Shown one piece after another: positions 17,044 to 55,605 of a stretch of DNA of 64,000 nt. Location of the stretch: the sequence record PQ352032.1, one strand, 5' to 3'. Numbering within the stretch: the first letter of the stretch is position 1; each line of letters opens with the position of its first letter. Made by a program: the position numbers and the translations under genes. The notes beneath the pieces were generated by a model. It worked only from the letters and a program-made list of their open reading frames with translations. It searched no databases and was not told the DNA's origin. This stretch comes from Enterobacter phage phiT5282EW.

Positions 17044-19824
17044 TTACCTCGTTGCGAAGCTGCGCGGTTGGATAAAGCTGGAGCTCACTGGCAGCTGTTC
17101 GGTTTTAATAACCTGCCCCGACGAATCTTTATGCTGTACCTCCAGCGGAGCCGCCTTAATATCAATCCGTCCACCAGTCTGAGGCATCGTTTTCGGGTCG
17201 ATGTTGTTCAGGTCTTTCAGCTTATCTTCCCACGCATAGACGCCCGGCGCATAGTTCCGGTTTTCAGATGTGTAACGCCCGGCCCCGGTTCCGCCGTTGT
17301 AACGGCTCAGGGCTTCATATTCGTTACCACCAGCAGCATCCAGATCGTCGCGGAGGTGCGCAGCACCAGCCATGATATTCCCGCGTTGGGTGTAGATATC
17401 GTACTGGCGCATATATTTGGCGTTCCACTTCGGTACCAGCTGAGCAGCACCGATAGCGCCAGCGCGGCTGACCGCTTTGTTACTGAAACGGGATTCCTGC
17501 GCGATCAGTCCACGTAACAGGCTTGGGCGGATGTTGTACTTCTTCGCCGCGTCCTGAATGTCCTTTTCCATGCTTTTCGCGCGCGCAGCCATATCGCCCG
17601 GCACGTTCTCCGGCAGACTGGCTTTCGCGTTTTCGATCAGCGCAGCCGGAGAATCGCCCAGCGTTGAGGTGTCCATGGCCCCGGTTTCCGCTGACGAGCT
17701 ATACCCACCTGCGAGCTCATCAACACGGCGATTCATCGCAGCAGTTTCAATATCGCGCTGACGGTTGTTTGCGGCCTGCTTATCAATGATTGCTTTACGC
17801 TTGGCGTTCGCCTCAGCGTCATTCCCTGTCACCATGTTCAGCTTGGCTTGCAATTCGCGGTTGGCATTGTCGAAACGCATATCAATGCGACGTTTGCCCT
17901 GCGATTTCTCGCGGTCGATATAGTTCTGCCTCAGGCTGGCTTCATCGCCCACACCAGCCATCTTGACCAGTGCCATACGCATTATATCCAGCGACGGCAG
18001 AGCGCGATCTGCAAAGCGGGTCATGGTGTTGTCCAGCTTCGCTACGTTATCGCGGATCTGGGATCCTTCTGTTTTGGTGCCACCGTGAATGCTGACCAGC
18101 TCAGCCATTACATCTTTCAGCTTCTCGGTATCGCTGCCCTTATAGGCACCCATCAGGCGCTGACGCTCGGCATCGGTCAGGTCTTTTCGGCCCAGATAAT
18201 CCTTCGCCATGCTGCCCAGACCAGTACCACCCCCCTCAATGATCCCCATCTGAGCCATCAGCTGCGGGGTCACGTTCAGGCCCAGACGCTTGGCGCGAGA
18301 GTCCGCCCCGGTTAACTGCGTCATAGAGGTATTGGAGAGGGTCATGGCCTCATTAAGCCCGGTGCCCATATGGTTAGCCAGCGCCATGTAATACTCAGGT
18401 GTACCCTGCCCATACTGGCGAGCCATCTGGCGTTTAACCAGATCAAACATGGTTGTGCTGCCCTGCGGGCCAGCGCCAAACGCGCGACCGTATGGCGTGT
18501 TAGCGCCAAAGGCGGAGCTCAGCGTGCCAAACATCCCAGTTTCCTGAAACGCTCGCGTCTGGTACGGGTTCAGGCCCGCTGCCATACCCATTCTGGCGGT
18601 GAATGCTTGGGACGCTTCACCCATGTTGCCGCCGCGTGACAGGGACGCGTTGACGCGGCTCAGGAGCGATGCAGCGCCCTGCACATCCATTCCCGGCAGG
18701 CCAGTTTGCATCAGGCCAGCCAGAGCGCCGCCATAGCCAGCGACGTTTGGCCCGGTCAGGCTTTGCCGTGCTGCCGTGGTGGCGAAGTTGGTGATCGCCT
18801 CCATGGCTTCATTGGCCTGCCCGAAAGCGCCGGATTTACCGATGGCCTCACCGATAAGCGCACCCATGCGGCGAGTGTCCTGATCGGAGCGCCCGATATT
18901 AGCACCGCGTAGCCGCGCCATGCTTCCGGCTACGCTATTCGGATCCAGACCAAAGGTACGCGCCATGCCCCCGGCAGTGAGCAGCCCGGTCATCGGGTTC
19001 TCACCCGGTCGCAGGTTCGCGCGGGAATAGCTTGACGCCATTGCAATAGCATCGGAGGTCTTCATGCCCAGCGTATCAGCCAGACCGCCTGCGCCACCGA
19101 TGGAGTTTTTCAGCACAGCATACGAGGCAACGCCCCCGACCTGACGATACAGTTTATCGAGGCCAATGGCGTTATCCTGCGCCTGCGCGACCTTATCCGC
19201 GATAGCACCGATGATCTTACCCACGCCCAGCGCAGCCAGACCGCCCACAAGCCCCATCAGGCCAGCGCCAGCACCAGCCGATAACCCGGTGCTCAGAGCA
19301 CTGGAAAATACACCACCGACCGGGCCCGTTGCTCGCAGCCCGGACTGCATGATATTAAGCCCATGAGCGCCCCAGCCTTGACGCCAGTTGAATCCACCAC
19401 CGCTTCCACCACTTCCCGGAGGCAGCGCTGGAGGCGGCGTCGGAGGTGTTGGGCGCGGTGGCTTAGGCTTTGGGTTATCGTCAAAATCCACGCCAAGAAA
19501 TTGCAGCATAGACTGCATTTTCTTGATGCGTTCAGCCTGATCGCCATACATCTTTTTCCAGTCAGCCATGAGCGGGTTAGTCGAGCCTTGGCCCGTTTTA
19601 CCCATAGTTGTTCTGAGCTCAGTCTGTACTTTAAGCAGCTTCTGCATCTGCTTGATGAAGGCGTCCAGATCCTCTTTCGATTTGACGTTAATCGGCTCAA
19701 ACTTCTGGTTGTTGGCCTGACCGACCTGCGACGCGAGGATGCGGATCTGGTCATTAACCATCTGGATCTGCTGTTTCAGGTCTGCCGCATCGAACTGGGC
19801 ACTAACCGGAATTTTAATTGCCAT
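17044..19824 (-). CDS. tail tape measure protein with C-terminal lytic transglycosylase (SLT) domain
   Basis: 926 aa, coiled-coil N-terminal part, Gly-rich middle; C-terminal LLRGLIAQESRFSNKAVSRAGAIGAAQL ... SLT signature; directly downstream of chaperone pair. Confidence 0.8.
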   Translation of the reverse strand: MAIKIPVSAQFDAADLKQQIQMVNDQIRILASQVGQANNQKFEPINVKSKEDLDAFIKQMQKLLKVQTELRTTMGKTGQGSTNPLMADWKKMYGDQAERIKKMQSMLQFLGVDFDDNPKPKPPRPTPPTPPPALPPGSGGSGGGFNWRQGWGAHGLNIMQSGLRATGPVGGVFSSALSTGLSAGAGAGLMGLVGGLAALGVGKIIGAIADKVAQAQDNAIGLDKLYRQVGGVASYAVLKNSIGGAGGLADTLGMKTSDAIAMASSYSRANLRPGENPMTGLLTAGGMARTFGLDPNSVAGSMARLRGANIGRSDQDTRRMGALIGEAIGKSGAFGQANEAMEAITNFATTAARQSLTGPNVAGYGGALAGLMQTGLPGMDVQGAASLLSRVNASLSRGGNMGEASQAFTARMGMAAGLNPYQTRAFQETGMFGTLSSAFGANTPYGRAFGAGPQGSTTMFDLVKRQMARQYGQGTPEYYMALANHMGTGLNEAMTLSNTSMTQLTGADSRAKRLGLNVTPQLMAQMGIIEGGGTGLGSMAKDYLGRKDLTDAERQRLMGAYKGSDTEKLKDVMAELVSIHGGTKTEGSQIRDNVAKLDNTMTRFADRALPSLDIMRMALVKMAGVGDEASLRQNYIDREKSQGKRRIDMRFDNANRELQAKLNMVTGNDAEANAKRKAIIDKQAANNRQRDIETAAMNRRVDELAGGYSSSAETGAMDTSTLGDSPAALIENAKASLPENVPGDMAARAKSMEKDIQDAAKKYNIRPSLLRGLIAQESRFSNKAVSRAGAIGAAQLVPKWNAKYMRQYDIYTQRGNIMAGAAHLRDDLDAAGGNEYEALSRYNGGTGAGRYTSENRNYAPGVYAWEDKLKDLNNIDPKTMPQTGGRIDIKAAPLEVQHKDSSGQVIKTEQLPVSSSFIQPRSFATR

Positions 19825-35013: not shown

Positions 35014-35089
35014 TGATTCTGTAGCTACAGCGGTAGAGCGGCGCACTGTTAATGCGCGGGTCGCTGGTTCGAATCCAGCCAGAATCGCC
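35014..35089 (+). tRNA. tRNA-Asn (anticodon GTT)
   Basis: 76 nt; acceptor GATTCTG/CAGAATC, D-arm GCTA..GAGC, anticodon stem GCGCA/TGCGC with loop CTGTTAA, T-arm GCTGG-TTCGAAT-CCAGC, discriminator G, CCA encoded. Confidence 0.85.
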
Positions 35090-35255
35090 AGAGTAATCAT
35101 GGGTTGGTTACAAGCCTGTCAGAAGGCAATCCCGCCCCGGCTCCTCCTCAGGTCGCCGGGGCACCTTCCCAGAATTAAGGGCAGTCCCTTACTTCTGCGT
35201 CGGTAAGAGCGGAGAATCAGGAAATTTCGACCGTAGTACCAAAACATTGCTTCCT

Positions 35256-35299: not shown

Positions 35300-35827
35300 A
35301 TGAATATCTTTCGCCGCATCCTGAATAAAATCTTTGGCATCCCACCAGCGCCACCAGAGCCGAAGATCGAGCCGCCAAAGTTCGGCGGTGATTTCCCGCG
35401 CCCGGTCTCCGTCACCATGAAGGCTACTCAGACCGTCAAGCAGGATCCGATGGCTGCGGCGGTCGCCCGTGCAAAAAGGGACGCGGAGAAAACTGCCGTA
35501 AAAGGCAACGTCAGCAGCGCGAGCAGCAGCTCCACCACACGCCCTGCATATGATCCACTCATGGATCCACTTAACCCGTTAAGCCCGCTATATGTTGGCG
35601 TAACAGTTGAGGAGCCGCGCCACCGCGTACAGTATCAGGAGGCGACGACGATCAGCGATACCACGCACCGACACGTTTCCAGCCATTCTGAGCCAGTACG
35701 CAGCTACAGCTCGCACAGCAGCAGCCATTCGAGCCATGACTATGGCAGCAGCCACTCAAGCCACAGCAGCCACGACAGCGTCAGCTATGACCACGGCAGC
35801 AGCCACCATAGCGGCAGCGACTGGTAA
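35300..35827 (+). CDS. Ser/His-rich low-complexity protein (moron)
   Basis: GAGGAG RBS before ATG 35300; C-terminus SHSSSHSSHDYGSSHSSHSSHD...; plus strand amid minus-strand modules. Confidence 0.55.
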   Translation: MNIFRRILNKIFGIPPAPPEPKIEPPKFGGDFPRPVSVTMKATQTVKQDPMAAAVARAKRDAEKTAVKGNVSSASSSSTTRPAYDPLMDPLNPLSPLYVGVTVEEPRHRVQYQEATTISDTTHRHVSSHSEPVRSYSSHSSSHSSHDYGSSHSSHSSHDSVSYDHGSSHHSGSDW

Positions 35828-38444: not shown

Positions 38445-38462
38445 GTGAATCCTTGGGTAAAA

Positions 38463-38478
38463 TGGCCCCGAAGGGCCA
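38463..38478 (-). terminator. hairpin between tail fiber 2 and terminase (weak T-tract)
   Basis: TGGCCC-ttcg-GGGCCA on minus strand followed by TTTTACC. Confidence 0.4.
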
Positions 38479-38486
38479 AGAGGGTA

Positions 38487-41327
38487 TTATTTTTTAAGTG
38501 CTGCGATGGTAGCTTTCGCTGATTCAGGATCGGTTAACGCGAGGTCTACCAGATCAAGAAGCTGCTTAATAGCTTCGGTATGGAAAGCCGCAGTCAGCCC
38601 GGAGTAATTGAGGCTTTTAAAATCTTTAATCTGCGTCTTCTGGTCGTATGAGGTATGGATTCCGGTACTTACGGCTTCTGGAGCCCATGGTTCAACGTCC
38701 TGCGCGATCAGTCCTACCTCGCGGCTTTCTACATCTTTGCGCTGGTAAGTCACACCACGCCAGTTGATAACTGCTTTTAACGCATTATCCACTCTCTTAA
38801 TGTCGGACTTAATGCGGATGTCTGAATCGACAACATACGCCCCGTTACCATGCAGCGTGCCATCTTGGTTTCGGAACTCCCAGCCATAACCCCCGGTATC
38901 TTTCAGGCAGTACAATTTCGCGCAGAAATAGTTACCTTGGTAATCGAGAGGATAAAGCTCGACTCGGCTGGACGCTGAGAGCGATGAGCCAAGGCGCATG
39001 ACAAGCTGTGTTCCCCTTGCCTGCTTGTTGTTATCGTAGAACCCTGGTGAATAGCTATTAATGAAATCAATCGCTCCGTTAATAATGCCGCCAGAGCCAA
39101 AGGTAATCGAGCGGCAGTCACGTAAATTCGAAGCCCCAGTGACGTTCAGCCCCACAGAGGTAAGCGTACCGGGCACATTCATGCTGCCGTCGTCGCTCAT
39201 ATCAAAGTTAGCCGTATTATTTCGCGTCTTATTAGTCACGGTAATGCGCGCTGAATATTTAGCGCCGACCGTACCGACAGCCTGCAACATCGCCTTACAT
39301 TCAGATACGCCTGCGACCTGATAATCAGAAATAATCTGACCACCCTTGATCGAGGTGTTATTGCTCGGCAGCGCAGTATCACCATTGATCACAGACCACG
39401 ACGTATTCGCGGCAACAAATCCACCCGATGCACGAATGACCCAGACCCCAACGAAGCTACGGGGCAATACGTCATCCGTGATATTATCACGACCGTAGAC
39501 ACTATCAGAAATGGACGCATCAAGGGACAGTCTGTTTGACGAAGACCCTGTTCCGCTAGGAGTATAAACGCTCCCGTTAGCACCATTATAAGTTGTTAAA
39601 GAACGCTCACCACCATCTAAACCACCTTCACCACCAGCTATTTTAACGCTACCTTTGATGTTTGGTACGGCGGCCTTATACACCAGACCATCCATACCGG
39701 AGTTACCACCATCACCACGAGCGAACAGCGCCTTAATTGAGTTGGACTGAACACCATTACGGTCAGGTACACGGAAGGTGGTAGAACCATTGCCGAGAGA
39801 GTATCTACCACGTTTAGTATGGTCTGCTAACCACTCAGCATCAGTGATGGGCGTGAGCATCTGAGCATACGCCCACAACTCGGGCCAGTCTGCGCGGTTA
39901 AGCAACTGACCGTCAGATACAACCTCATACGGCTGAATGTATGCACGGCTATCGCGTAAGTGGAAGTCACCCACGCCGTAGTTCATCACGCCATTCATGG
40001 ATGGCCCGCCAGCACCGCCAGAAGCCGAACGTAGCTGTCTCATGGTTACGGCGTCATAATCACCAACGGCATCGCCGCCCAGTTTCAGCGGGCCAGATAG
40101 CCCGGTCATGGAGGTAATGTCGTCATTTACCCCTGATTTTGCGCTTTTACGCCAGTCCGTGAATACGCTTCCATCATAGCTTCGTGACGCAATACGCCCG
40201 CTTTTGGCAATGTAAATCTGCGTAACACCACCAGATACCCCGATTGGGAATACAATCAGCTGCCCGGTTTCATCAAACGGGAAGTTATTGGCTGCGACAG
40301 CGCCAGCAACACTAGTGAGGGATACCACGCCATAATGCGCCGGAAGGATGCGATCATTCAGGTTGATAACCGTTGTAATGACATCCAGCTGGGCGACGGC
40401 TTTCACTTCGGATGCCGCAGGCGGGTTATCGCTGGTATACATCCGGCGAGAGGCGCTCCAGACGTTATTCGTCCGTGTGATGCGATAGAGCCATGTTGGC
40501 GTCGCACCCTCGGAAGCGAAAATTAATACCATCGAGGTGCGATCCTCATTCACGCTTTCGCAGTGAATGCGCCACGCCACTGCGCCAGCACCAGTAACCC
40601 CAGAAGGAAAACCATTCGAGCTAATAGCATCCGATGCTTTCACGCGCATAGTTTCACCTACGCGCCAGACATGCGAGGTGATCGTGTCTCCGGTGGCAGC
40701 GAAGTCGAAGTAAGGCAGTTTGATGCCCATAAGGCCAGCATAAGCCGCTGTAAGCACCGCGCCGTCGCGGGTGGTGGTTGGGCTGGCGATCTCCTGATCG
40801 GTCAGGGAACGGGCGATATTCAGCGCTACTCCTCCGGTCGGCTGAGCACCGCTGCTGTGTGTCCAGTCGATTGTTGCACCGTTACCCGCGATCAGTAGGC
40901 CAGTCCATTTGCGCGGTGCAGTGCTCGGCGCGATGTTAAACCAGATCTCATACGTATCAGCTGCGACCTCGACCAGCTTGCCGCCAAGGATGGTCGCTGA
41001 ATTTACGCCAAGGTTAGTCTGGGCAGTAACGGTGATGCGTGCCGGATCACCGACAGTGGTCACAGAGCCGTCGCCTGTCTGCATGACAATGTTGGCGAAT
41101 CCAGTACCAGTCACCACCATCAGCGTAATGGCAATTTTGCCCTGCGCTAGATTGGAGATCTTGCCCATCTTCTGCCAGCTATCTGACGTGATATCCCAGT
41201 CAGTGAGCATCACGGCATTTTTATCCAGCATGGTCAGAGCATCGGTCAGCTTGCCCACATCAATTTTTAACGGGTTGGTCAGGTATGGGACAGGAAGCCC
41301 AAGCCGGGGAGTAGTTTTGTCCACCAT
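38487..41327 (-). CDS. tail fiber/tailspike protein 2 with C-terminal intramolecular chaperone (S74-like) domain
   Basis: N-terminus MVDKTTPRLGLPVPY paralogous to fiber 1; shared internal box SGPLKLGGDAVGDYDAVTMRQLRSASGGAGGPSMNGVMN; C-terminus ...VGLIAQDVEPWAPEAV... chaperone-like. Confidence 0.8.
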   Translation of the reverse strand: MVDKTTPRLGLPVPYLTNPLKIDVGKLTDALTMLDKNAVMLTDWDITSDSWQKMGKISNLAQGKIAITLMVVTGTGFANIVMQTGDGSVTTVGDPARITVTAQTNLGVNSATILGGKLVEVAADTYEIWFNIAPSTAPRKWTGLLIAGNGATIDWTHSSGAQPTGGVALNIARSLTDQEIASPTTTRDGAVLTAAYAGLMGIKLPYFDFAATGDTITSHVWRVGETMRVKASDAISSNGFPSGVTGAGAVAWRIHCESVNEDRTSMVLIFASEGATPTWLYRITRTNNVWSASRRMYTSDNPPAASEVKAVAQLDVITTVINLNDRILPAHYGVVSLTSVAGAVAANNFPFDETGQLIVFPIGVSGGVTQIYIAKSGRIASRSYDGSVFTDWRKSAKSGVNDDITSMTGLSGPLKLGGDAVGDYDAVTMRQLRSASGGAGGPSMNGVMNYGVGDFHLRDSRAYIQPYEVVSDGQLLNRADWPELWAYAQMLTPITDAEWLADHTKRGRYSLGNGSTTFRVPDRNGVQSNSIKALFARGDGGNSGMDGLVYKAAVPNIKGSVKIAGGEGGLDGGERSLTTYNGANGSVYTPSGTGSSSNRLSLDASISDSVYGRDNITDDVLPRSFVGVWVIRASGGFVAANTSWSVINGDTALPSNNTSIKGGQIISDYQVAGVSECKAMLQAVGTVGAKYSARITVTNKTRNNTANFDMSDDGSMNVPGTLTSVGLNVTGASNLRDCRSITFGSGGIINGAIDFINSYSPGFYDNNKQARGTQLVMRLGSSLSASSRVELYPLDYQGNYFCAKLYCLKDTGGYGWEFRNQDGTLHGNGAYVVDSDIRIKSDIKRVDNALKAVINWRGVTYQRKDVESREVGLIAQDVEPWAPEAVSTGIHTSYDQKTQIKDFKSLNYSGLTAAFHTEAIKQLLDLVDLALTDPESAKATIAALKK

Positions 41328-41415: not shown

Positions 41416-41670
41416 TTACCACTTGAATTGTCGCTGCTCGTCCTCGCAGAGCCCGAACAGCTTATGCACGCCACAGTAAACAGCCCCGGCGACGACGACC
41501 ACCATCACAAGGCCCATCAGCATGGAACCGAAGCCAAGAGCCGCAAGGCCAGAAGTAATGCCTGCTGCACTCAATCCTGAAACCTTCCCCAAAAGGCTGA
41601 TCAGCAGGATAGGCGTTCCTGCCGCTGCTGCGCCTGCTGTGACTTGTTTTGCCACTGTGTACCCGTTCAT
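41416..41670 (-). CDS. small membrane protein (Gly-zipper-like TM segments)
   Basis: 84 aa, two hydrophobic segments. Confidence 0.4.
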   Translation of the reverse strand: MNGYTVAKQVTAGAAAAGTPILLISLLGKVSGLSAAGITSGLAALGFGSMLMGLVMVVVVAGAVYCGVHKLFGLCEDEQRQFKW

Positions 41671-42101
41671 TACCGCCCCTTTTTATGTGTCGCTGAGCGG
41701 TGCTGTCCGCTGTAGCGATGGTTTCCATATGCCGGATCATCGAACCATGAAGTTTGACGCTGCTTACTTTTACCGGAATAAGCGGAGTAAGGCGGTTTCG
41801 GCTGGAGTTTAGCCATCACTTGCCAAACGTCATAGCAGGCATCATGGAAACGGCGATCCGTTGTCGAGTCCTTGAAATTGCTGTACATCATTTCCGCGAC
41901 GTACTGCGCCAGCATGGATTGCAGCTCCTCGCGGTTGACGAACACTCGGAACTGGTAATCGCGGTGATCGTGCGTGACCACTTCTTTGGTCGGGAAGTAT
42001 TTGTTCAGATGCTCTTTACGGCGAGCACGTACTTGGATCACTTCCGGGTCTTGTTTGTCTACGACAGCAGACAGAAAGCCATCAGATAAAATCAGCCACA
42101 T
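41670..42101 (-). CDS. hypothetical protein
   Basis: 143-aa ORF with GAGGAA RBS; own consensus promoter upstream. Confidence 0.45.
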   Translation of the reverse strand: MWLILSDGFLSAVVDKQDPEVIQVRARRKEHLNKYFPTKEVVTHDHRDYQFRVFVNREELQSMLAQYVAEMMYSNFKDSTTDRRFHDACYDVWQVMAKLQPKPPYSAYSGKSKQRQTSWFDDPAYGNHRYSGQHRSATHKKGR

Positions 42102-42137: not shown

Positions 42138-42166
42138 ATAATACGTCATGCGTGCCGTATGGTCAA
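42138..42166 (-). promoter_or_regulatory. sigma70-like promoter TTGACC-N17-TATTAT with inverted repeat ATACG..CGTAT in spacer
   Basis: Read on minus strand; -35 overlaps NUDIX stop codon; TSS ~30 nt before ATG 42101. Confidence 0.55.
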
Positions 42167-43026
42167 TCTTTTTTCTTACCTAAATACGCGTCAAGCACCA
42201 TTTGGTCGGGCTTCATGTTCATTAGCTCGCGCAGCTTGTTTTTTGGTACCAGCTGGACGGCCTGCGTTTCCCAGCCCATCGCTACCGGGGAACCACCGAC
42301 GCGCTTCGCCAGATACATGCGAGAAACGGACGTGGTGCGCTCAAAGTCACCCAGCACGCCAGTGATCTCGATCTGTAGCCCGGACTCCTCCCATGTCTCT
42401 TTGATGGCGTTCTGCTGGAGCGTGAGCCCCGGCTCAGTGCCACCCTTCGGGAAAGTGTTCTGGTAGCCGCCGAAAGCGTTGGTCGGGCTGATAATCCACA
42501 CGCGACCGTCAGGCTCCTCAATGATGACGCCGGACGCTGGACGCTTCCCGGCTGGCACCATTAACGGCTGCTCGGTCATCTGTTTGGTGCCCTTCACAAA
42601 GGCCCAGCCAGCGTCGGTTTTCGGTGCGCCAGTCCACGGCGCGACCGGGACGCCATTCAGCTCCTGCGGTGCTGCACCATTAGGCGTGAAGGTGGCCACC
42701 TCGTTGCTCGCGGCCCACGTTGGCGCTTCGGTCGGTTTGCTCGGATGGTTAACCACGACGCGGTTGCCCTTCTCACCCAGTCGCGGATGGTGGACAATCT
42801 TCGTCGGTAGTCCTTTGCTGGCGGTAGTCCTGTGCGTGCCATACGGCGTCGTGGGCAGCGCTGGCTTGCGGTAATAGGCTTTCTTGGCCTGAGGCTTCGC
42901 AGGCGCTTTGGGGGCCGCAGGCGCATCAGGTTTGGCTGCTGCCTTCCCGTTGTCGTGCGGCTTCACCCATACGCCATCGCTCCGGCGATAGCCCTTCACC
43001 TGCGCTTTCAGGAAAAGTTTAGTCAT
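42163..43026 (-). CDS. NUDIX hydrolase with Pro/Ala-rich N-terminal extension
   Basis: Nudix box ...FPKGGTEPGLTLQQNAIKETWEESGL (REuxEExGu-like KETWEESGL); start set to MTKLF (ATG 43026, GGAAGG RBS) rather than ORF-track 43140. Confidence 0.75.
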   Translation of the reverse strand: MTKLFLKAQVKGYRRSDGVWVKPHDNGKAAAKPDAPAAPKAPAKPQAKKAYYRKPALPTTPYGTHRTTASKGLPTKIVHHPRLGEKGNRVVVNHPSKPTEAPTWAASNEVATFTPNGAAPQELNGVPVAPWTGAPKTDAGWAFVKGTKQMTEQPLMVPAGKRPASGVIIEEPDGRVWIISPTNAFGGYQNTFPKGGTEPGLTLQQNAIKETWEESGLQIEITGVLGDFERTTSVSRMYLAKRVGGSPVAMGWETQAVQLVPKNKLRELMNMKPDQMVLDAYLGKKKD

Positions 43027-43501
43027 TGCCTTCCACTCCCAGCATCCATTGCGCCATGGATTCGACGCTGGACTGCACGCGGGCGGCGATTTCTGCATCC
43101 TTCCCGCCCTTGTCAAATGCCTGGTAAATACTGATCGCAAAGCGGGCCATCGCGTGCGCGACGATCAGCGCGGGATCCGTTTCATCCTTCGCCAGCCCCT
43201 TCACGTTCTGGATCCAGCGCGGCAGCGCGAAGTCATTCCAGCCCGGCAGCACGCTAAAGCCTGCGGTGTTACCCACAAAGATGTTAGCGGTGTTCAGCGC
43301 CTGCGCACGGTCGGCCTCCAGCGCTTCTTTCTCAGTCATCTGGTTGGCCTGCACCTTAGCGATGCGTCCCACGATGTCCTTGGCGAAGTTATTCAGGATG
43401 GTGCGTGCCACGTTGATATCGCCCAGATAAACGCTGCCATCAGCAGCGTTCAGACCTTCGATAAACCACGTTGGATCAGTATGTCGGTTCAATTCAGCCA
43501 C
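43019..43501 (-). CDS. hypothetical protein immediately downstream of ART toxin-like gene (immunity candidate)
   Basis: 160-aa ORF starting 9 nt after giant gene stop. Confidence 0.4.
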   Translation of the reverse strand: MAELNRHTDPTWFIEGLNAADGSVYLGDINVARTILNNFAKDIVGRIAKVQANQMTEKEALEADRAQALNTANIFVGNTAGFSVLPGWNDFALPRWIQNVKGLAKDETDPALIVAHAMARFAISIYQAFDKGGKDAEIAARVQSSVESMAQWMLGVEGND

Positions 43502-43510
43502 AGAGCCCCC

Positions 43511-46500
43511 TTATACGCTCGGCAGGATGATACATTCCACAACGGTCATGCCGCTGCCGCCAAAGCCATCGGCGTCCTTAGTCCCCGATTCGTTCACCTT
43601 AGTGATGAGTAGGCGGGTATTAGGTGGCAGGATAATTTCTTTTTCCCCGGTATGGTGCGAGATAGATCCACCACTCGGAAGCGAGCCAGCGCCCGCATAG
43701 ATACCTTTTACGCCGGGGCCTGCTGTCATTTTGAGGTGAATATTACCACTCCACACGTCTGGACTGATAGACGTGGACATAATTGCAGGCTCCATGATGA
43801 CCTTGCCGACCGACGCTTTCAGCTTGGAGAGATCACCGCTGCCCAGACTGAATTTGCGCCCGAACGTGGTACCCGGCGAAATTTCATGGCCCATACCAGA
43901 CAGCGCCTGCGCTGCTGCTTTCGCTTCTGCGCTTGGGTTGCCCTTCCACAGTCCGCTGTTCATCTGCTTATAACTGCTACCAGTATACGCCTGCACGGCC
44001 TGCTTTTGTGTCATCGGCAGCTTTTCCCACACTTCCTGTGCTGCTTTGGCATAAGTGTTTGTGGTCAGCGTGCCAGCCTTGAAAGTGGTTTTAGTAATGC
44101 CAAGGTCTTCCGGCTCAACAATCCCCGGATGGCCCAGCACCAGCAGGTTCCCGATCTTGTCTGCATCGTTACCGCTCCAGTTTTCCGGCTTGTATTCTTC
44201 GTGCATCGAATACAGCGGGTGATCGCCGCCGATACGGAACTGCTCGGCTTCATGCCCGGTAAGCTGGCTCTTAATCTCGTTAATCGCCTGCATCGCGTAG
44301 CCTTTGATGTGCTGCGATGGGTGATCGAGCACTGGCACCTGTCCGGTAACAGCTCCGGTGTCTTTGTCAAAGGTTGGCGCGGTCAGGCCGCGAATGGCTT
44401 CCGGGTCTCCGGTCAGCGCCGCAGAATAAATGGCCTGCGCCGCGTCGTGGTTCCCTTTGTTCAGGAACTCTTTGGAGGACGGGCCGGATTTGCCAACGCC
44501 AGACCAGTTGAGGAAGTCAGGCGGGGTACTGATTTTCTCCGGCTTGAATTTCTGCATTTTGATGATCTGCTCGGCTTCCGGGTACTTCTCAGCCAGATAC
44601 TCTTTGCGCTTGATGAGCGTTTCCACCAGCTCTTTTTTGGCCTTCTCATCGCCCGGCCCATACTGGTTGACCATGTGCGCGATTTTGGCGTCGGAGATAG
44701 CCAGCACCTTGGAGACAGACGCGGCGATATCGGCCTCAGTCATGCCACCGAAGACGGCGGCGCTGTTCGCGTTCATCTTCGGATCCATCAGTGACTCCAG
44801 CTCCTTAACTACCGGGCCAAATTCTTTCTTCGCACCCTGCGCACGGAACATCAGCGAGCCGCCCGCATCGACGCGGTGAATGGTGCCGTCATCTTTCAGC
44901 TGCACGTTGTCTTTCGCCAGCCCCACGACATCCCAGTTACCCAGCCACGCATCAACGGCAAAGCCTTCCAGCATACCCTTGGCCTTCGCCAGCGCTGCAT
45001 GGGTTTTGGCCTTCTTGATGTTCTCCCACTTCGAGGCAATAGCCATTTTCCCGTCCTTGGTGACGATCATGGCGTCCTGCGCGGACAGGCCAGCGGCGCT
45101 ATACAGTTTCGCTGCCAGCACCTCAGCCTTGGCGTGCTCCTCGTTATCCGGGAACTTCACATACCATTCCTGCCCATCGGCGTCCTTCATTTTCATGCCT
45201 TCATTCGAACCGCCTTGGTTGCCCCCGGTCACTGTCCACTCATCGACGCTGATCGGCTCTTTCTTCTTCCACTGGTACTTTTTGACCTCCATCGGGCCAT
45301 CAGCGGCAAGGCCATTCTCTGCCGGGTTGCTGGTCGCGGCGGTAGCATTCATCAGCTGCGCGACGCCATTCATAGCATAGGTGCCATTCACCTCAGGGTT
45401 ATAACCGGACTTAACCTTGATCCCATTAGCCATCAGCATCATCGACGCATATTGCGCCAGCGCCTTTTTACCCGGCGCGGTCGGGCCATACTCCGTTGAG
45501 ACCTTAATTTTCATCCCAAACTCGCCATAAATCAGCATCGAACCATCGGCTTTCTGCATGATGACGCCTTTGGTGCCGCCGCCTTTGGTCAGCTTGGCTT
45601 TGAGGTTATCTACATATTTCATGTAGTGATCCTGCTGCCAAGCGCTCAGGCCAAGCGCAGCGAAGTCAGGTGCCGGGATCTCGTCAGGATTGGCCCTAAC
45701 CCAGCGCCCGTTTTTCAGGATCAGCATCCCATTGGCACCCGGCTTCATGTCGCCTTCTTTCGGGCCATCGCCTTCTTTCTGGCCCTCGTCGGCTTTCTTA
45801 GCATCTTCTTCGGCTACGGTGTTTTTGATAGCCGTCAGGATCCCTTCGATAGCCACAGGAGTAAAGTCGTTGATGATAAGCACGCTCTTAATGGTGCTGA
45901 CCGCATCCACTTTGTCCGGGTTGGCGTCGTAGTATTCCTTGCACGCCACCGACGCCTTGACGACCTTTTGCAGCCCGGTTTTGGTCTCCGCGATGCTCTT
46001 GATGTCGTCCAGCAGTTTCAGGTCGATATTACCCAGCTCCGGCGCGGCAGGTTCAGGCGCAGGCGCAGGCTCCTCAGCTCCGGTGATCTGATCCTGTACA
46101 AAGGTCATGGTGCTGATCGCGTAATCCGTCATGCTCATCTTGACCACATCGGTGCCCTGATTCGCCATCAGCGCATACGCGGACTCTTTGACGCTGTTCA
46201 GCACGGCCTCTTTCATTTCCGGCGAGTCGGTGTACTTCGCCAGCATCGCCATCGCTGCCAGACCATCCAGCGCATCTGCATCCGCCATGCTATCGCCCTT
46301 GTAACTGGCTTTCGGGATCCCCTGCGGGACGCCGTGCATGTTGATGCTGTCTTTCAGTATGGACTGGAGGACAGGGATATGGGCCACGTTATCGCCTGCG
46401 GCCTTCACGATGTCCTGATAGGTGGCAGGGTTGTCGCCTTTCTTCGCCACGTATTCCTGCACAGCCATGAGCGTTTCGAGGTTGTCTTTGGCGTTGTTGA

Positions 46501-49500
46501 AGACCAGCCCAAGGTCATACATGTTTTTCGGCTTGCCCGGCGCAGCGGTCAGCTTGTCCAGCACCTCAGCCATGTACTCCTTGTACTTGGTACCGTTGAT
46601 CGTGGTGCTCGGCGTCACGTTCTGCTCATATTTCATAGCCTCAATGAGCAGCTTTTTGCTGTTCTCATCCTTCGCCAGTGTTGCAGCGATGGCGTAGCCC
46701 TGAAAATCAGTTGCCTCGGTCGAGTAGAAACCAACGTCCGGCTTAATCGGCAGGTTGAGCGGCTTGCCATGCTTTTTGAAGTAAGCCTGACCGATTTCAG
46801 ACGCAGCGTAGACGTGCCCGCTGTTCATTTTCAGGATATTGTCGATAACAGTCGTGTACGCGCCCTTATCGCCATGGTTATCCTTGATGAATTCCAGACC
46901 GATGCTGGTCGCATCATCGCCGTTCGCGCCAGCGAGGGCCTGTTTGAGCGCCACAATCTCGCTGCCCGCGCTGCCATTGGCTGAGGTCTCAGGCATATCC
47001 TGCTGTAAGATCCAGTGCCCATTATGGAAGACCAGAATACCGCCTTTACCCTGCTTGGTATCACCTTCTTTCGGGCCATCCTCTACCAGCCACTTATTGA
47101 CCTCCTGCTGGTACAGTTTAACCTGCACAGCAGCTGGCTCTGAAAGGTGAAGCTCGCTCAGCTCATTAAAGTGCTTGGCAATCACATCAGGATCTGATTC
47201 TTTGCCTTTGTGAACTTCTTCGGCAATGACGTTATAGAGGGTCTGCACTTTCGTGCCATAGGTTTTCACCGTGTCGCTGGTTGGTGATACCAGCGGTTTT
47301 TCTGGCTCAGTCCCGTAAGTCTCACTCCACCACTTACCATAGGCTTTCTTGCCAGCGATAAAGAACTCATTCGCCAGCTCGTTAAACCCATTGTCCTTCA
47401 TGGCCTCAGCCAGCACCACCAGCTGCGGCGCATCATGCCCATTCGCCGTCATCCAGTCGCCAGCAATCGCGTCGGCCTGTTTTTCGTCCTTGGCATCTGT
47501 CAGCGCATCAAAGGCGCTTTCCCACATGGCGTAATCATTCAGGATCGCTTTCTTCTCCTGCTTACGCTCATGTTTGGTGGTAATCTGCTCGGATTTCGCC
47601 GCAGCCTGAGATTTCTCAGCCCATGAATCGTACAGCTTCCCGACACTGGACTCGGAGAAAGCCAGATCGCTACCGTAATAAGTAGATGCCTGCTCAATGA
47701 ATGCCTCGCCTTTGGTCTTCGCCCACTCGTTGAACTCAGCCACATCGTTGAATTCTGGCAGCTGCGGTTCAGGGGTTGGCGCACGCTCCTGCTTGATCTG
47801 AGGTGGCGTCGGCAGCGATTTCACGGAGATATCGCCCAGCTCTTTCTTGGCGGCGGTCACGGCTTCGATGATCCACGCGGACAGGTCAACCTTCTGGAAG
47901 GCATCAATCAGGTTCTGGTCATCACGGATCACTGTCACCATGTCGTTGATGTTGTCCACAGCCAGCGCCCAGTTACCCGCGTTGAGGTCATTCTGGATGT
48001 CCTCACAGATGCCGTCGATAAACGCATCACCAGTCTGCGGAGGATTGGAGAAAGTCTTCGTGCCCGGCTCCGGTGCAGCAGTTTGCAGGCCAAGGGATTC
48101 CGCCAGATTTACGGACGGGGTTTTGCCAGCCATGATCTGCTGGTAGACCTCATTCTGCGTGTTGGAGAAGCCGGAGATATGGCCCCAGTCGCCCTTCTCG
48201 TTAACCCACATGCCTGAGCCCGGATTCTTCGGATCCGCGACGATGACGGCGCTGGTATTGGTCGGGTAAACGCCTGCGTCTGGAGTCGTGGACAGCACGC
48301 CATTCCACATGTTCTTGATGACGTTTTGCTGCTTCTGGGTCAGGTGATTCGGCTTGCCCAGCTCCACCAGCTCGGTCGGGTACTCGCTATGGTGATAGTC
48401 GGAAATGTAGCCCAGATTGTCCGGGGTTTTGGTGTTGCCACCAAAGCCGATCAGTTTCAGGTACTGTCCCGCTTGGAACGGCTTAGCCAGCGGCTCACCC
48501 TTCTTGCTTATAGGCCATGCGGTCGCGTGCCCCATCAGCACTTTCAGGTACGGCTTACCGTCCTTGTCGTAGGTCTGGATGATTGAGCCTGCGGGCAGGT
48601 TCGGCATATCGGAGATCGACAGCTTCTGGCCCTTTTTGAACTCACCAGCGACAGGCTGATCCTTGAGCGGCTCGCCAGTCTCCTGATTGTGCCAGCGACC
48701 GTCTTTGAAAACCTGCATCCCGTTTTTGCCCATGCGGGTATCACCTTCCTGCGGGCCTTCCTCAGCCCGGACGGTTTTCTGCTGCTCAACCTCTGCGCTG
48801 GCCTTCTGATCCTTTTCTGCCTGGCTAAACTGGCCCAGCATTGGATGCACGGCGTCTTTGCCGATAACCACTTTGATATCCGGGTAGCCCAGCGCTGCCA
48901 GCGCGTTATTCGCAGCCTTGGCGACTTTGAGCCCGTAGGTGTTTTTTCCGTATGTCATCGCCAGAATGCCGTTGATGTTGCCTACTTCGCCAGCGGCCTT
49001 GATAGCGGCGATCTGCGCGTTGTAGCTTTTGGCATTCTTAATGTTCTCCGCGACGGCGAACTGGCTCCAGTCGATAGCGTCCATGGCCTTCTTCGACACG
49101 GATGCTTTCGGGGCTGGCTTGCCTTCGGCGGTGTCCGGCTGCGCCGGGGAGGTAGCGATGATTTCCACTGCGCTCAGTGGGCTCGGTTCCTCGGACTGCA
49201 CCAGCGGCTTATTCGGGTTCTCACCCGTTAGCAGCGCCAGCTTTTGACCGTAGAGGTTCAGCAGCTTTTTGCTATTCGGGGTGATACCCTTCCAGCTTTT
49301 CGCCTTGGTCTTGATGGCTTCCAGCTCCGCCAGACTGGTGGCGTCGATAACCTTCTGAGCCTGCGCCTCATACGCGGTGCGCACGCCAGTGGAGTTTTTG
49401 CCGGATTCAAATTTAGGCATGACGATTTCGCCTGGCTTCGGTGCTTCGGCAGCAGGTGTTGAGGCTTTCTGGACTTCTTCTTTAGCTGCGTTTTTTTTCT

Positions 49501-50284
49501 CAGGTGAAGGAGACGGCCCATCTTTTGGCATAATAAGGCTTAGTTTTTTTGCGCCACCCGGTTCAGTTTTAAAGTATCCAAACTGCGTACCGTAATTCTC
49601 AATCGCGTGCAGCTGGTGCTGTTTTAAATCACCAATCTCAATAGTGATGACGTTATTTTTTACTTTGTATGCTTCAATCGGTGGCAGACCTAGGTAACTC
49701 TCAATTCCAGAAACAATGGCTTGTTGTTTGGCTGTCAAATTACCTGTAGCTGGTTTTGTTGCTGCCTTTGCCTCTTGCGCTACGGCTTCAACGGCCTGCT
49801 CAGCCATCTGATCGACGGTCTCAGGCTCTCTCTCGTATGTGGCGATGGCAGGGTGCTCACCCGCTTTCTGGCCCGCGCTGACCTTCTCCTGCGAGCCCAT
49901 TTGCTCCAGCAGATAGTTGGCAATCGCCACCAGCTTTTTACCGTGGGTGTTCACGCCATAGGAGGATCCCAGAATCGCCGCGATATCGCCGTTGGCAGCG
50001 TGCTGCAACAGGTTCGGGACGTGCTTCTGGTTGAAATGCTTAATGTCTTTGTTGGTCGCCTCTTTCTCAGCAGGATAGAGCAGCTGGCTCGACTCCTCCT
50101 GAGGCATGGCGTAAGGCTTATGGCCTTTGCCACCAGCTTTAGGGTGCGCGGCTTTCGGAGCGTTCTTGACGCCCTTCATGTCCGGCGTGGTTTTCTTCCA
50201 GCGCCCATTGATCAGCGCATAGCCCGCTTGGTGGGCGAATTTTTGATTAAGTGCTTTTGCGAGGACAAGCATGGTGGCCACCAT
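43511..50284 (-). CDS. giant (2257 aa) modular protein with C-terminal mono-ADP-ribosyltransferase domain (C2/C3/Vip2/iota R-S-E class)
   Basis: C-terminal 170 aa: YTGSSYKQMNSGLWKG helix, Arg in TFGRKFSLG, STS in AIMSTSISP, ExE in HTGEKEIILPPNTRL, matching Vip2/C3 catalytic motif order and spacing; three linker repeats GPKEGD-x-K-x-G; continuous ORF. Confidence 0.85.
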   Translation of the reverse strand: MVATMLVLAKALNQKFAHQAGYALINGRWKKTTPDMKGVKNAPKAAHPKAGGKGHKPYAMPQEESSQLLYPAEKEATNKDIKHFNQKHVPNLLQHAANGDIAAILGSSYGVNTHGKKLVAIANYLLEQMGSQEKVSAGQKAGEHPAIATYEREPETVDQMAEQAVEAVAQEAKAATKPATGNLTAKQQAIVSGIESYLGLPPIEAYKVKNNVITIEIGDLKQHQLHAIENYGTQFGYFKTEPGGAKKLSLIMPKDGPSPSPEKKNAAKEEVQKASTPAAEAPKPGEIVMPKFESGKNSTGVRTAYEAQAQKVIDATSLAELEAIKTKAKSWKGITPNSKKLLNLYGQKLALLTGENPNKPLVQSEEPSPLSAVEIIATSPAQPDTAEGKPAPKASVSKKAMDAIDWSQFAVAENIKNAKSYNAQIAAIKAAGEVGNINGILAMTYGKNTYGLKVAKAANNALAALGYPDIKVVIGKDAVHPMLGQFSQAEKDQKASAEVEQQKTVRAEEGPQEGDTRMGKNGMQVFKDGRWHNQETGEPLKDQPVAGEFKKGQKLSISDMPNLPAGSIIQTYDKDGKPYLKVLMGHATAWPISKKGEPLAKPFQAGQYLKLIGFGGNTKTPDNLGYISDYHHSEYPTELVELGKPNHLTQKQQNVIKNMWNGVLSTTPDAGVYPTNTSAVIVADPKNPGSGMWVNEKGDWGHISGFSNTQNEVYQQIMAGKTPSVNLAESLGLQTAAPEPGTKTFSNPPQTGDAFIDGICEDIQNDLNAGNWALAVDNINDMVTVIRDDQNLIDAFQKVDLSAWIIEAVTAAKKELGDISVKSLPTPPQIKQERAPTPEPQLPEFNDVAEFNEWAKTKGEAFIEQASTYYGSDLAFSESSVGKLYDSWAEKSQAAAKSEQITTKHERKQEKKAILNDYAMWESAFDALTDAKDEKQADAIAGDWMTANGHDAPQLVVLAEAMKDNGFNELANEFFIAGKKAYGKWWSETYGTEPEKPLVSPTSDTVKTYGTKVQTLYNVIAEEVHKGKESDPDVIAKHFNELSELHLSEPAAVQVKLYQQEVNKWLVEDGPKEGDTKQGKGGILVFHNGHWILQQDMPETSANGSAGSEIVALKQALAGANGDDATSIGLEFIKDNHGDKGAYTTVIDNILKMNSGHVYAASEIGQAYFKKHGKPLNLPIKPDVGFYSTEATDFQGYAIAATLAKDENSKKLLIEAMKYEQNVTPSTTINGTKYKEYMAEVLDKLTAAPGKPKNMYDLGLVFNNAKDNLETLMAVQEYVAKKGDNPATYQDIVKAAGDNVAHIPVLQSILKDSINMHGVPQGIPKASYKGDSMADADALDGLAAMAMLAKYTDSPEMKEAVLNSVKESAYALMANQGTDVVKMSMTDYAISTMTFVQDQITGAEEPAPAPEPAAPELGNIDLKLLDDIKSIAETKTGLQKVVKASVACKEYYDANPDKVDAVSTIKSVLIINDFTPVAIEGILTAIKNTVAEEDAKKADEGQKEGDGPKEGDMKPGANGMLILKNGRWVRANPDEIPAPDFAALGLSAWQQDHYMKYVDNLKAKLTKGGGTKGVIMQKADGSMLIYGEFGMKIKVSTEYGPTAPGKKALAQYASMMLMANGIKVKSGYNPEVNGTYAMNGVAQLMNATAATSNPAENGLAADGPMEVKKYQWKKKEPISVDEWTVTGGNQGGSNEGMKMKDADGQEWYVKFPDNEEHAKAEVLAAKLYSAAGLSAQDAMIVTKDGKMAIASKWENIKKAKTHAALAKAKGMLEGFAVDAWLGNWDVVGLAKDNVQLKDDGTIHRVDAGGSLMFRAQGAKKEFGPVVKELESLMDPKMNANSAAVFGGMTEADIAASVSKVLAISDAKIAHMVNQYGPGDEKAKKELVETLIKRKEYLAEKYPEAEQIIKMQKFKPEKISTPPDFLNWSGVGKSGPSSKEFLNKGNHDAAQAIYSAALTGDPEAIRGLTAPTFDKDTGAVTGQVPVLDHPSQHIKGYAMQAINEIKSQLTGHEAEQFRIGGDHPLYSMHEEYKPENWSGNDADKIGNLLVLGHPGIVEPEDLGITKTTFKAGTLTTNTYAKAAQEVWEKLPMTQKQAVQAYTGSSYKQMNSGLWKGNPSAEAKAAAQALSGMGHEISPGTTFGRKFSLGSGDLSKLKASVGKVIMEPAIMSTSISPDVWSGNIHLKMTAGPGVKGIYAGAGSLPSGGSISHHTGEKEIILPPNTRLLITKVNESGTKDADGFGGSGMTVVECIILPSV

Positions 50285-54183: not shown

Positions 54184-55605
54184 TCACTTTGGGGCAGTGG
54201 TAGGCTTCGGCTCCACTGACGCTGGTTTGCCTGGCTGATTGCGGATCGTGGTAGCCAGTGCGCCCGGTCGCGTCGCAAAGTAGGTATAACGCCATTTTCC
54301 GGTCTGGGCCTCCCAGTATTTCACGCGCCAGCCTGAGTCCTGATCCTCCCACTCCTCAGAGTAATACGCGGGCTTGGCATCGTTATCAGCATTACGCTGC
54401 GCGATAGCTGCGGCCTCTCCGGTCGGCTTCCAGCCGTGCAGGTTGATCTCATCACCTCCACGGTTCTGGATGTGGCGCTGGTATTCAGCGAGAAGGGTGT
54501 CCTCAATCTTCGCCAGCTCAGCGGTTGCCTTACGGCCTGCTGCCGTGCAGTAGAAGTGTGTCAGCTGCTCATAGCGATCAAAGCCGTTTGTCATGTTCAG
54601 GAACACGCGGGCCTTTTTGTCGTACATCAGCTGGAGGTGCGGCTCCATCCATCCCTGCGTCGGGCGTTCTTTCAGGTGGATGTGATACTCAGCCATTTCT
54701 GTCCGGTCATGCGGGATCACATCCAGACGGTACAGGTAGCCCTGACGCCAGCAGCGCTTGTCAGTGCGCAGGGTACCATCGCTCAGCTCCTCCTCCGCGA
54801 GCTCCAGACGCTTCTCGCTGCCCGGCTTCACATCTGACAGGCCCAGCGAAACACGGCGGTGGACTTCCGCGATCATGCGCTGCGTCGTGTAATGGGGTTG
54901 CAGGGTGATGACCAGACCGCTGATTTTGGCACGCAGCGGGGCCAGCGGGTGCAAGCGCTTCACCACGTCCTCAATGGTTTCATCGCGCTGCTGCAAATGC
55001 AGCTGCCCGGACTCCAGCGGCTCGTAATCATCAGGGGCGGCGTGATCCAGCGTCAGCGCATCGACGGTCTTACCTTGCATCATACGCATCCCATGGCCCA
55101 GCTGCGGGGCGCGTACCTCCTGCACCAAATCCATGACTTCTTTCTGGCGTTCTGTCAGCTCAGGCTCCTCAACAGCGCGGGCCATCAGCTTTTGCAGATC
55201 TGGCGTTGGGTCTGCTGGCGAGTTCAGCACTTCCTGAGGCACGACCGGACGCGTACCACGGCCCGCTAATTGCACCCAAGGCTCACCGCCAGCAGGGAAT
55301 CGGTCATTCAGATTGAGCACGTACTCAGCGTGGGCGAAGGCATCAGCCAGAGTCATTACCGGATCGATGTGGATGGTCTTGCCGTCATAAATCAGGTCAA
55401 TGGGTTGGTTTTCGGCGACGGCACGGCCTACGGCATTCAGGAGCGCTTCACCTTCTTCGGCATGGAGTTGAGGCACTTCTTGCTGCTGGGCTTTTACCAT
55501 TTCCAGACAGGACATAAACGACTCAGCTTTTGCCTCAGTAAACTTCTCATTGTGCAGGGCGTTAAATACAGCAACAGCGCGGGCAATAACGGATAATTTC
55601 GACAT
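54184..55605 (-). CDS. large hypothetical early protein (473 aa)
   Basis: Acidic/Pro-rich C-terminus; no motif recognised. Confidence 0.45.
   Translation of the reverse strand: MSKLSVIARAVAVFNALHNEKFTEAKAESFMSCLEMVKAQQQEVPQLHAEEGEALLNAVGRAVAENQPIDLIYDGKTIHIDPVMTLADAFAHAEYVLNLNDRFPAGGEPWVQLAGRGTRPVVPQEVLNSPADPTPDLQKLMARAVEEPELTERQKEVMDLVQEVRAPQLGHGMRMMQGKTVDALTLDHAAPDDYEPLESGQLHLQQRDETIEDVVKRLHPLAPLRAKISGLVITLQPHYTTQRMIAEVHRRVSLGLSDVKPGSEKRLELAEEELSDGTLRTDKRCWRQGYLYRLDVIPHDRTEMAEYHIHLKERPTQGWMEPHLQLMYDKKARVFLNMTNGFDRYEQLTHFYCTAAGRKATAELAKIEDTLLAEYQRHIQNRGGDEINLHGWKPTGEAAAIAQRNADNDAKPAYYSEEWEDQDSGWRVKYWEAQTGKWRYTYFATRPGALATTIRNQPGKPASVEPKPTTAPK

Follow-up and report, generated by a model that had tools for sequence, protein, structure and literature searches.

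A giant kinase–ADP-ribosyltransferase protein of Enterobacter phage phiT5282EW as a candidate virion-delivered polyvalent effector

What might a phage gain from encoding a single polypeptide of 2257 amino acids (aa) with a toxin-type enzyme at its C-terminus? This question is raised by a gene located at 43511..50284 on the minus strand of the 64,000-nucleotide stretch (hereafter the window) of Enterobacter phage phiT5282EW analyzed here (PQ352032.1), which runs from an ATG at 50284 to a stop codon at 43511-43513. An initial annotation, made from the sequence alone, had recognized the C-terminal ADP-ribosyltransferase (ART) domain of its product and had overlooked a HipA/CtkA-like kinase domain at aa 1679-1905. 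Our analysis suggests that the giant protein is probably a polyvalent effector of a ~95-kb myovirus, delivered with the virion and combining two enzymes for host takeover or counter-defence.

The giant gene and its two enzyme domains

As claimed by the initial annotation, the gene is one continuous 6.8-kb open reading frame (ORF), uninterrupted over 2257 codons and by far the largest of the window, in which the runner-up encodes 946 aa. The extent originally given was correct; the strand, which had never been stated, is the minus strand. By our own arithmetic, an open frame of 2257 codons would be expected by chance with a probability of (61/64)^2257, or ~e^-108. An alternative start is provided by the second ATG (M5, nt 50272), which is preceded by GGTGG, was chosen by other gene calls and would yield 2253 aa; the first ATG lacks an obvious ribosome-binding site.

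The caution that the ORF might be an assembly artefact of several genes was examined in independent genomes, where the gene was found to be intact, and this explanation was rejected. In Escherichia phage ECML-606-1 (OL631484, 95 kb), which shares ~99% nucleotide identity with the window, the giant gene is a single coding sequence labelled 'hypothetical protein' and starting four codons later, in Yersinia phage fHe-Yen8-01 an uninterrupted gene of 2146 aa (53% identity) is annotated, and uninterrupted versions of 2149-2253 aa were found in at least nine independent metagenome/SRA clusters. The statement that the giant protein is not the tape measure is reasonable, since a 926-aa protein with a lytic transglycosylase region (17044..19824) is encoded between the genes of the tail sheath and the baseplate, and a tape-measure function was thus rejected. 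A resident E. coli prophage or plasmid was rejected as well, as no copy of the giant gene was found among 5,426 complete E. coli genomes.

The ART domain comprises aa ~2075-2257 (43514..44062, minus strand, as for all domains of the giant protein described below) and was delimited by profile, motifs and structural model. All four motifs originally quoted are present in the expected order, namely YTGSSYKQMNSGLWKG at aa 2100, TFGRKFSLG at aa 2140 (R2143, nt 43856-43858), AIMSTSISP at aa 2167 (S2170-T-S2172, nt 43769-43777) and GEKEIILPP at aa 2213 (E2214-K-E2216, nt 43637-43645). Comparison of the last 250 aa with Pfam PF03496 (ADPrib_exo_Tox), a check proposed in the initial annotation, gave a match above the curated threshold (E=2.8e-11; 43.6 bits, cut-off 23.4). 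Searching the PDB with the single ART sequence retrieved SpvB, VsdC and Lmo0066, and a profile of 19 ART family sequences matched Vip2 at 2e-9 among PDB sequences, with further matches to Lmo0066, Vis, VsdC, SpvB, Tre1, CdtA, C3larvin and iota Ia.

The predicted structure of the C-terminal domain did not depart from the expected one: the model adopts the ART fold, a split beta-sandwich with N-terminal helices. Among the predicted viral structures of BFVD it resembles T4-like Alt proteins, and further matches are MuF-, portal- and minor-capsid-ART fusions, for example an 'ADP-ribosyltransferase domain and MuF-like fusion protein'; similarly, the giant protein matches PHROG 802, 'Alt-like RNA polymerase ADP-ribosyltransferase'. 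Across 31 diverse relatives, down to ~23% identity, the E-x-E motif is invariant, the S-x-S serine scored in the alignment (S2172; S257 of A2) is conserved in >90%, and the catalytic arginine is kept except for a lysine in three sequences.

Taken together, the PF03496 and Vip2 profile matches, the fold and the motif order confirm the proposed C2/C3/Vip2-type R-S-E mono-ADP-ribosyltransferase at the C-terminus: judged by its sequence, the domain is an Alt/VIP2/C3-type R-S-E ART with intact catalytic residues and a predicted enzyme. The finer classification requires amendment. An E-x-E motif is the mark of arginine-specific enzymes (Alt/Vip2/SpvB-like), and a Q-x-E motif that of C3-like enzymes acting on asparagine. 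Hence, within the C3/Vip2 class originally assigned, the E-x-E motif points to a Vip2-like and not to a C3-like enzyme and predicts an arginine acceptor, so that the specificity of the domain is probably for arginine. Furthermore, the view that T4 Alt, ModA and ModB represent a different subclass is not supported, since the prototype of this Alt/VIP2 R-S-E clade is T4 Alt itself (PMC5512222 section 9; PMC9503650 section 3.7.1). The giant protein carries a single ART domain, as indicated by one Pfam family in the scan and by a non-ART domain upstream in the model. Between the kinase and the ART, a small helix/beta-hairpin/helix domain was modelled with confidence (aa ~1935-2010; 44255..44482), for which a convincing structural relative was not found.

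The second enzyme domain (aa 1679-1905; 44570..45250) was recognized by its conserved residues and fold. When the giant protein was mapped against 100 homologues by BLAST, the widely conserved parts were aa 5-150, a short repeat and a C-terminal block covering aa 1679-2256, and the aa 1679-1905 part was also found standing alone in Gordonia and other actinophage proteins. This domain contains the conserved residues K1710 and E1721, a catalytic loop (N1783-W-D1785 ... D-N1793) and a Mg-binding D1806 (VDAGG); in 25 sequences, down to 28% identity, the E, D, N and D residues are invariant and the K nearly so. Its relatives, with the figures listed for them, are CotH (13.8), PI4K2A (12.4), MavQ (12.1) and HipA-family kinases (11.7-11.9). 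A profile of the domain aligned with CtkA at the catalytic loop with E=0.29, which is below family thresholds, and HipA_C was matched, only at sub-threshold level, in 6 of the 25 members. HipA_N and Couple_hipA were not matched in the Pfam scan of the giant protein, and no helix-turn-helix antitoxin of the HipB/HipS type was found among the neighbouring genes. On weak but consistent sequence support, we conclude that aa 1679-1905 is probably a HipA/CtkA-like atypical kinase domain, with an intact active site.

Using our own hidden Markov models (HMMs), kinase and ART were detected together in 190 of the 221 collected family proteins (a set whose clusters mix 90%- and 50%-identity levels) and in 97 of 121 new representatives retrieved by the N-terminal domain alone. 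In carriers of both, the domain order closes with the ART, located at or close to the C-terminus. At least 190 sequence clusters with this tandem were collected, distributed over phages of Enterobacteria, Pseudomonas, Aeromonas and Actinobacteria.

Family-defining N-terminus, variable middle and exchangeable cargo

The conservation across clusters also defines the N-terminal domain of the family (aa 5-150; 49835..50272), in which a hairpin-like motif, 'GYALINGRWKK', is followed by a helical unit, 'N.N..FN..L..L...A..GD..AILG..YG.NT.GKKL..IAN.LL..MG'. When 1.84 billion representative proteins were scanned in full by HMMER, with only the first 176 residues as query, 140 clusters were retrieved, nearly all of 1100-2900 aa and nearly all with this domain at the extreme N-terminus. 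The profile of the N-terminal domain gave no real match among PDB sequences, and neither this domain nor the 'GDxK...NGRW' repeat described below was matched in Pfam, including its LPD families. We propose that the N-terminal domain would act as an anchor or packaging module.

The N-terminal helical unit recurs once at aa 380-508 (48761..49147), as revealed by the N-terminal-domain HMM (independent E-value (iE) 1.1e-20) and by BLAST cross-matches. It is followed by the first of three copies of a ~40-aa linker repeat with the consensus 'GPKEGDTKxGxxGxLVFKNGRW' (aa 503-544; 48653..48778; iE 3e-19); the other two, at aa 1064-1104 (46973..47095) and aa 1502-1542 (45659..45781), were located with the repeat profile. 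Among 101 proteins, comprising the query and 100 relatives, 92 contain one to three copies. The repeats separate middle modules that vary between lineages and might be sites at which the protein is processed. One such module, aa 545-900 (47585..48652), is conserved in 36 relatives with an invariant GYH...HP motif, and its 12-sequence profile gave chance-level matches only in PDB and Pfam. As a separate observation, an ~85-95-aa stretch covering aa 181-261 (49502-49744, minus strand) is kept in the identical cluster P0001 and missing from the close relatives P0002-P0010, which are 77-97% identical elsewhere; this is an indel that affects a single small module close to the N-terminus.

In relatives that share the N-terminus, ART-PolyVal, InPase, LPD1, WGR, NUDIX, zeta-toxin, GNAT or methyltransferase domains occur, and the PF01129 ART is another cargo domain within the family. 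Members devoid of kinase and ART are mostly short fragments, the long exceptions holding InPase, LPD1 or methyltransferase domains. Several proteins combine more than one ART: P0156 and P0207 each possess two R-S-E ARTs, one N-terminal and one C-terminal, and P0019 unites an H-Y-D ART-PolyVal domain with an R-S-E ART in a single polypeptide. A distant homologue retrieved through its kinase domain, P0098, carries MuF and an intein in addition to that domain.

Iyer et al. 2017 defined the polyvalent proteins, whose signature consists of InPase, LPD1, ART-PolyVal, zeta-toxin and GNAT domains and of MuF fusions; packaged representatives typically exceed 2000 aa and have a conserved N-terminal domain that is not enzymatic (PMC5512222). 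Within the giant protein itself, the Pfam scan detected none of the LPD families, ART-PolyVal, InPase or MuF. Two disparate effector domains, kinase-like and ART, are nevertheless united in one phage ORF, as is expected of a polyvalent protein, and relatives sharing its N-terminus carry InPase, LPD1, ART-PolyVal, zeta-toxin and GNAT domains; on these sequence grounds, the giant protein is best filed among the polyvalent proteins. The hosts of the relatives include soil Pseudomonas, Aeromonas, Morganella from insects and Yersinia. In addition, many relatives are located on ~100-kb contigs from isolate assemblies of Salmonella and E. coli, with identical synteny; such phages might persist in the isolates in a carrier state or like plasmids.

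Partner genes, packaging and alternative explanations

Two linked genes had also been overlooked in the description of the gene context. Nine nucleotides downstream of the giant gene lies a conserved gene for a 160-aa protein (43019..43501, minus strand), followed by a NUDIX hydrolase gene (42163..43026, minus strand; 287 aa from ATG 43026; Pfam 3.7e-12). The order giant gene, ~160-aa gene, NUDIX gene was found in ECML-606-1, fHe-Yen8-01, Dolphis, Mecenats66 and a ~100-kb Salmonella contig. The latter two genes overlap by 8 nt in the window, Dolphis, Mecenats66 and the Salmonella contig and are separated by a 4-nt gap in fHe-Yen8-01; the identical overlap suggests translational coupling, and the NUDIX start is probably ATG 43026. 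Orthologues in fHe-Yen8-01 share 56% identity with the 160-aa protein, 69% with the NUDIX protein and 72% with a 503-aa methyltransferase with a ParB-like domain, encoded upstream of the giant gene at 56109-57620 (minus strand). The 160-aa protein belongs to no Pfam or PHROG family, and only close orthologues were found in 5.8 billion proteins; it might serve as an immunity protein, a chaperone or a packaging adaptor. In distant homologues, NUDIX, kinase and ART are parts of a single fusion protein, an argument for a functional link between the NUDIX hydrolase and the giant protein.

Downstream of the giant gene, and in its orientation, follow the genes for tail fibre, TerL, portal, protease and capsid. 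Two strong terminator-like hairpins at 52242-52218 and 41408-41389 (minus strand; consensus matches only) bracket a block that comprises small upstream genes, the giant gene, the 160-aa and NUDIX genes and the sequence up to the gene of an 84-aa membrane protein. This bracketing hints at one transcription unit apart from the tail fibre and terminase genes.

In GenBank, the fHe-Yen8-01 orthologue of the giant protein is named 'ADP-ribosyltransferase toxin' and bears the note 'phage particle associated protein', a label also given to the orthologues of the 160-aa, NUDIX and methyltransferase proteins. Related modules are found next to head genes elsewhere. In Gordonia phage Forza, the portal gene is followed by genes for a kinase-domain protein and for a 1017-aa PF03496 ART protein, and in the P. 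juntendi phage-like plasmid p2463-1, portal and MuF genes precede the gene of a single NUDIX-kinase-ART protein and then protease and capsid genes. Apart from this, MuF was confined to the distant homologues P0098/P0099. In myoviruses, packaging of Alt/VIP2 ARTs and Nudix proteins into the virion is common (PMC9503650), and the group of phages to which ECML-606-1, fHe-Yen8-01, Dolphis and Mecenats66 belong has been described as myoviruses (PMC9503643). The relatives with polyvalent domains, the head-gene contexts and the 'particle associated' orthologue support the initial proposal of a multi-module phage protein of the injected-effector kind; the low cysteine content (3 in 2257 aa) is a weak hint in the same direction.

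On this evidence, we favour a model in which the giant protein would be made late and taken into the particle, with the N-terminal domain as likely anchor, and would be ejected with the DNA into the cell. There, the ART domain would use NAD+ for mono-ADP-ribosylation of host targets, with arginine as predicted acceptor, and the kinase domain would use ATP to phosphorylate host targets, such that host machinery might be redirected or defences blunted before phage gene expression. The 160-aa and NUDIX proteins, which appear to be co-transcribed and co-purifying, would act alongside the giant protein, the NUDIX plausibly hydrolysing ADP-ribose- or NAD-derived molecules.

Several observations weigh against this model. 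The evidence for packaging proper consists solely of the GenBank note on the fHe-Yen8-01 orthologue, for which we found no underlying publication. In the same record the large terminase is flagged 'particle associated' as well, and the flag may thus mean only that abundant late proteins co-purified. MuF (PF04233) gave no match at E<=1 over the whole giant protein, and a portal or other known head-targeting domain was not detectable in its Pfam scan. The giant gene lies beside small, early-looking genes, possibly in its own transcription unit between the hairpins. About 1400 residues (aa 150-1660 minus the repeats) are without a match in Pfam, PHROGs, NCBIfam and PDB sequences. Finally, the kinase fold is also close to that of lipid kinases (PI4K2A, MavQ), so that the fold does not tell which class of substrate (protein, lipid or small molecule) would be phosphorylated.

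Some of these points would equally fit an intracellular host-takeover or anti-defence enzyme that is made after infection and left unpackaged, like T4 ModA/ModB or the T7 gp0.7 kinase. The position of the giant gene after a run of small unknown genes, perhaps in a transcription unit separate from tail fibre and terminase, the lack of a MuF or portal fusion and the flag on TerL are in line with such an enzyme, as are the upstream methyltransferases and a weak Acb2/Tad1-like match in a Salmonella relative, which resemble an anti-defence island. We nonetheless consider this explanation unlikely, given that the orthologue co-purifies with particles, as do the products of the two genes downstream of it, that a kinase/ART/NUDIX module lies between portal/MuF and protease/capsid genes in two unrelated phage lineages, that P0098 joins the kinase domain with MuF, and that more than 2000 aa with a conserved non-enzymatic N-terminal domain typify packaged polyvalent proteins (PMC5512222).

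Co-purification with particles and the conserved N-terminal domain would also suit a mainly structural protein of the inner capsid or ejection conduit (compare T7 gp16 or the scaffold region of N4 vRNAP) with accessory or degenerate enzyme domains, and the region aa ~150-1660 is indeed without enzymatic signature and rich in A/E/K/P/Q linkers and repeats. Across very divergent relatives, however, conservation is highest at the catalytic residues of kinase and ART, and the middle of the protein is its most variable part. Moreover, cargo domains are swapped among relatives, which is the pattern of effectors and not that of structural proteins. A mainly structural function therefore appears improbable.

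A phage-borne toxin that acts in lysogenic conversion and is directed, like SpvB, Vip2 and C3, at actin or Rho of a eukaryotic host of the bacterium is very improbable: although the nearest solved structures are actin/Rho toxins (C3, Vip2, iota, SpvB, Certhrax) and the NCBIfam SpvB model is weakly matched, this match scores 19 where 1133 is required, the giant protein lacks a signal peptide, a binary-toxin B component and a duplicated adaptor ART domain, no B-component-like gene was found among its neighbours, relatives infect the soil, insect-associated and other bacteria named above, Mecenats66 is described as a myovirus with no discussion of lysogeny genes (PMC9503643), the giant gene is absent from the complete E. 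coli genomes searched, and the same fold has bacteria-targeting members in Tre1, acting on FtsZ (6drh), and T4 Alt.

A broader version of the virion-delivered effector model, which we regard as tentative and rather doubtful, is that the kinase-ART tandem on its dedicated N-terminal module represents a widespread and hitherto undescribed family of injected effectors, in which both enzymes and a co-packaged NUDIX act as a unit on one pathway. For example, phosphorylation may prime or gate ADP-ribosylation of one target, or the enzymes may jointly neutralise immune signalling based on NAD+/ADP-ribose. Likewise, the N-terminal 'GY....G.W.K' hairpin, of which the NUDIX carries a looser form, may be a new capsid-packaging or ejection signal. 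The NUDIX orthologues of five phages all start with 'KA..KGYxRxDGxxVxxH', and this motif resembles 'AGYALINGRWKK' at the N-terminus of the giant protein as well as its internal repeats. A scan of the window's proteins for the linker repeat/'GYxxxxGxW' motif gave no significant match, the N-termini of the giant protein (iE 0.6) and of the NUDIX (iE 8.6) being weakly matched, so that a shared packaging signal of the GYxxxxGxW type may be entertained as a lead with weak statistical support.

Injected phage proteins work before phage gene expression and thereby set the first minutes of infection; to our knowledge, T4 Alt, P1 Dar and N4 vRNAP are among the few that have been characterised. Here, two enzymes of post-translational modification are joined and linked to a NUDIX hydrolase, while research on NAD+/ADP-ribose-based immunity is currently very active, and the E. 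coli-infecting member renders the family genetically tractable. Identification of the substrates could uncover a new route of host takeover or anti-defence and would also probe the largely computational 'polyvalent protein' hypothesis. The matter also concerns phage therapy: regulatory questions arise when a coliphage considered for therapeutic use encodes a toxin-type ART, even one with a bacterial target.

Comparison with known systems and the surrounding region

Giant phage proteins with ARTs for delivery at entry are already described, and relatives of the giant protein (Dolphis gp117, fHe-Yen8-01 gp129) are labelled as ARTs in GenBank, so that the novelty suggested by the initial annotation was overstated. 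In the literature searched, we found no publication on kinase-ART phage proteins or on fHe-Yen8-01, and no prior description of a core formed by a HipA/CtkA-like kinase and an R-S-E ART, of a family-specific N-terminal domain with swappable cargo or of the linkage to the 160-aa and NUDIX genes. These three features are, to this extent, new.

Like the polyvalent proteins, the giant protein is a very large phage protein that unites disparate effector enzymes and is predicted to be delivered at entry (PMC5512222). It differs from them in that the kinase described there is a Ser/Thr/Tyr kinase without C-lobe, from elements of Verrucomicrobia/Bacteroidetes, whereas the kinase described here is HipA/CtkA-like with a helical C-lobe; in addition, no peptidase domain was detected in the giant protein. 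In common with MuF-ART fusions and MuF polymorphic toxins, it has a C-terminal ART of the PF03496 type on a putatively head-associated carrier, but its carrier is the family-specific N-terminal domain and MuF is not detectable. With T4 Alt it shares the R-S-E clade, the E-x-E motif and the proposed sequence of packaging, injection and ADP-ribosylation of host proteins (e.g. RNA polymerase). T4 Alt, however, has ~680 aa with a single enzyme domain, and its targeting and processing are carried out by the T4 prohead system, whereas the giant protein has 2257 aa and an additional kinase domain and stems from an unrelated myovirus, the ART being the sole domain in common.

C3 exoenzymes are small (~25 kDa), secreted single-domain enzymes with Q-x-E, in contrast to the E-K-E of the giant protein, whose ART ends a polypeptide of 2257 aa. 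Vip2, iota, C2-I and CDTa have a duplicated adaptor ART and a B component; the giant protein has one ART and neither of these. C3, the binary toxins and SpvB are moreover secreted and act on eukaryotic actin/Rho. Unlike CtkA (H. pylori JHP0940) and HipA kinases, the giant protein has no HipA N-terminal domain and no HipB-type antitoxin, its kinase is embedded in a giant phage protein, and the similarity lies below family thresholds. P1 DarB (~2255 aa) and N4 vRNAP are close to it in size class and are packaged and act at entry, but no homology was detected and their enzymes are a methyltransferase/helicase and an RNA polymerase, respectively.

On the minus strand, small unknown genes lie between the ParB-like methyltransferase gene and the giant gene, and the NUDIX gene is followed by two small genes (41416-42101), the tail fibre gene (38487-41327) and the genes of a gpA-type TerL (35828-38479), the portal (32407-34218), the head protease (30103-30987) and the major capsid protein (27816-29348). 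Several non-structural proteins of the region around the methyltransferase are flagged 'particle associated' in fHe-Yen8-01, and we suspect that the 473-aa gene next to that of the methyltransferase, at 54184-55605 (minus strand), is the match of one of them, fHeYen801_119. On the Salmonella enterica contig ABNHAV010000017 (100.9 kb; L007 1-21364), genes for three DNA methyltransferases and a DAO oxidase, and also a weak Acb2/Tad1-hairpin match, precede the giant gene, which is followed by genes of a YafQ/ParE-like toxin and of the HNH type.

The sole plus-strand features between the portal and terminase genes of the window are a tRNA-Asn(GTT) (35015-35090) and a 175-aa ORF (35300-35827) with a Ser/His-rich tail, SSHSSSHSSHDYGSSHSSHSSHD. 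The TerL, which is of the lambda gpA type, has a ~240-aa N-terminal extension matching another terminase PHROG, and its gene occupies an unusual position directly downstream of the tail-fibre gene; the work on Mecenats66 had already recognised its clade as distinct (PMC9503643).

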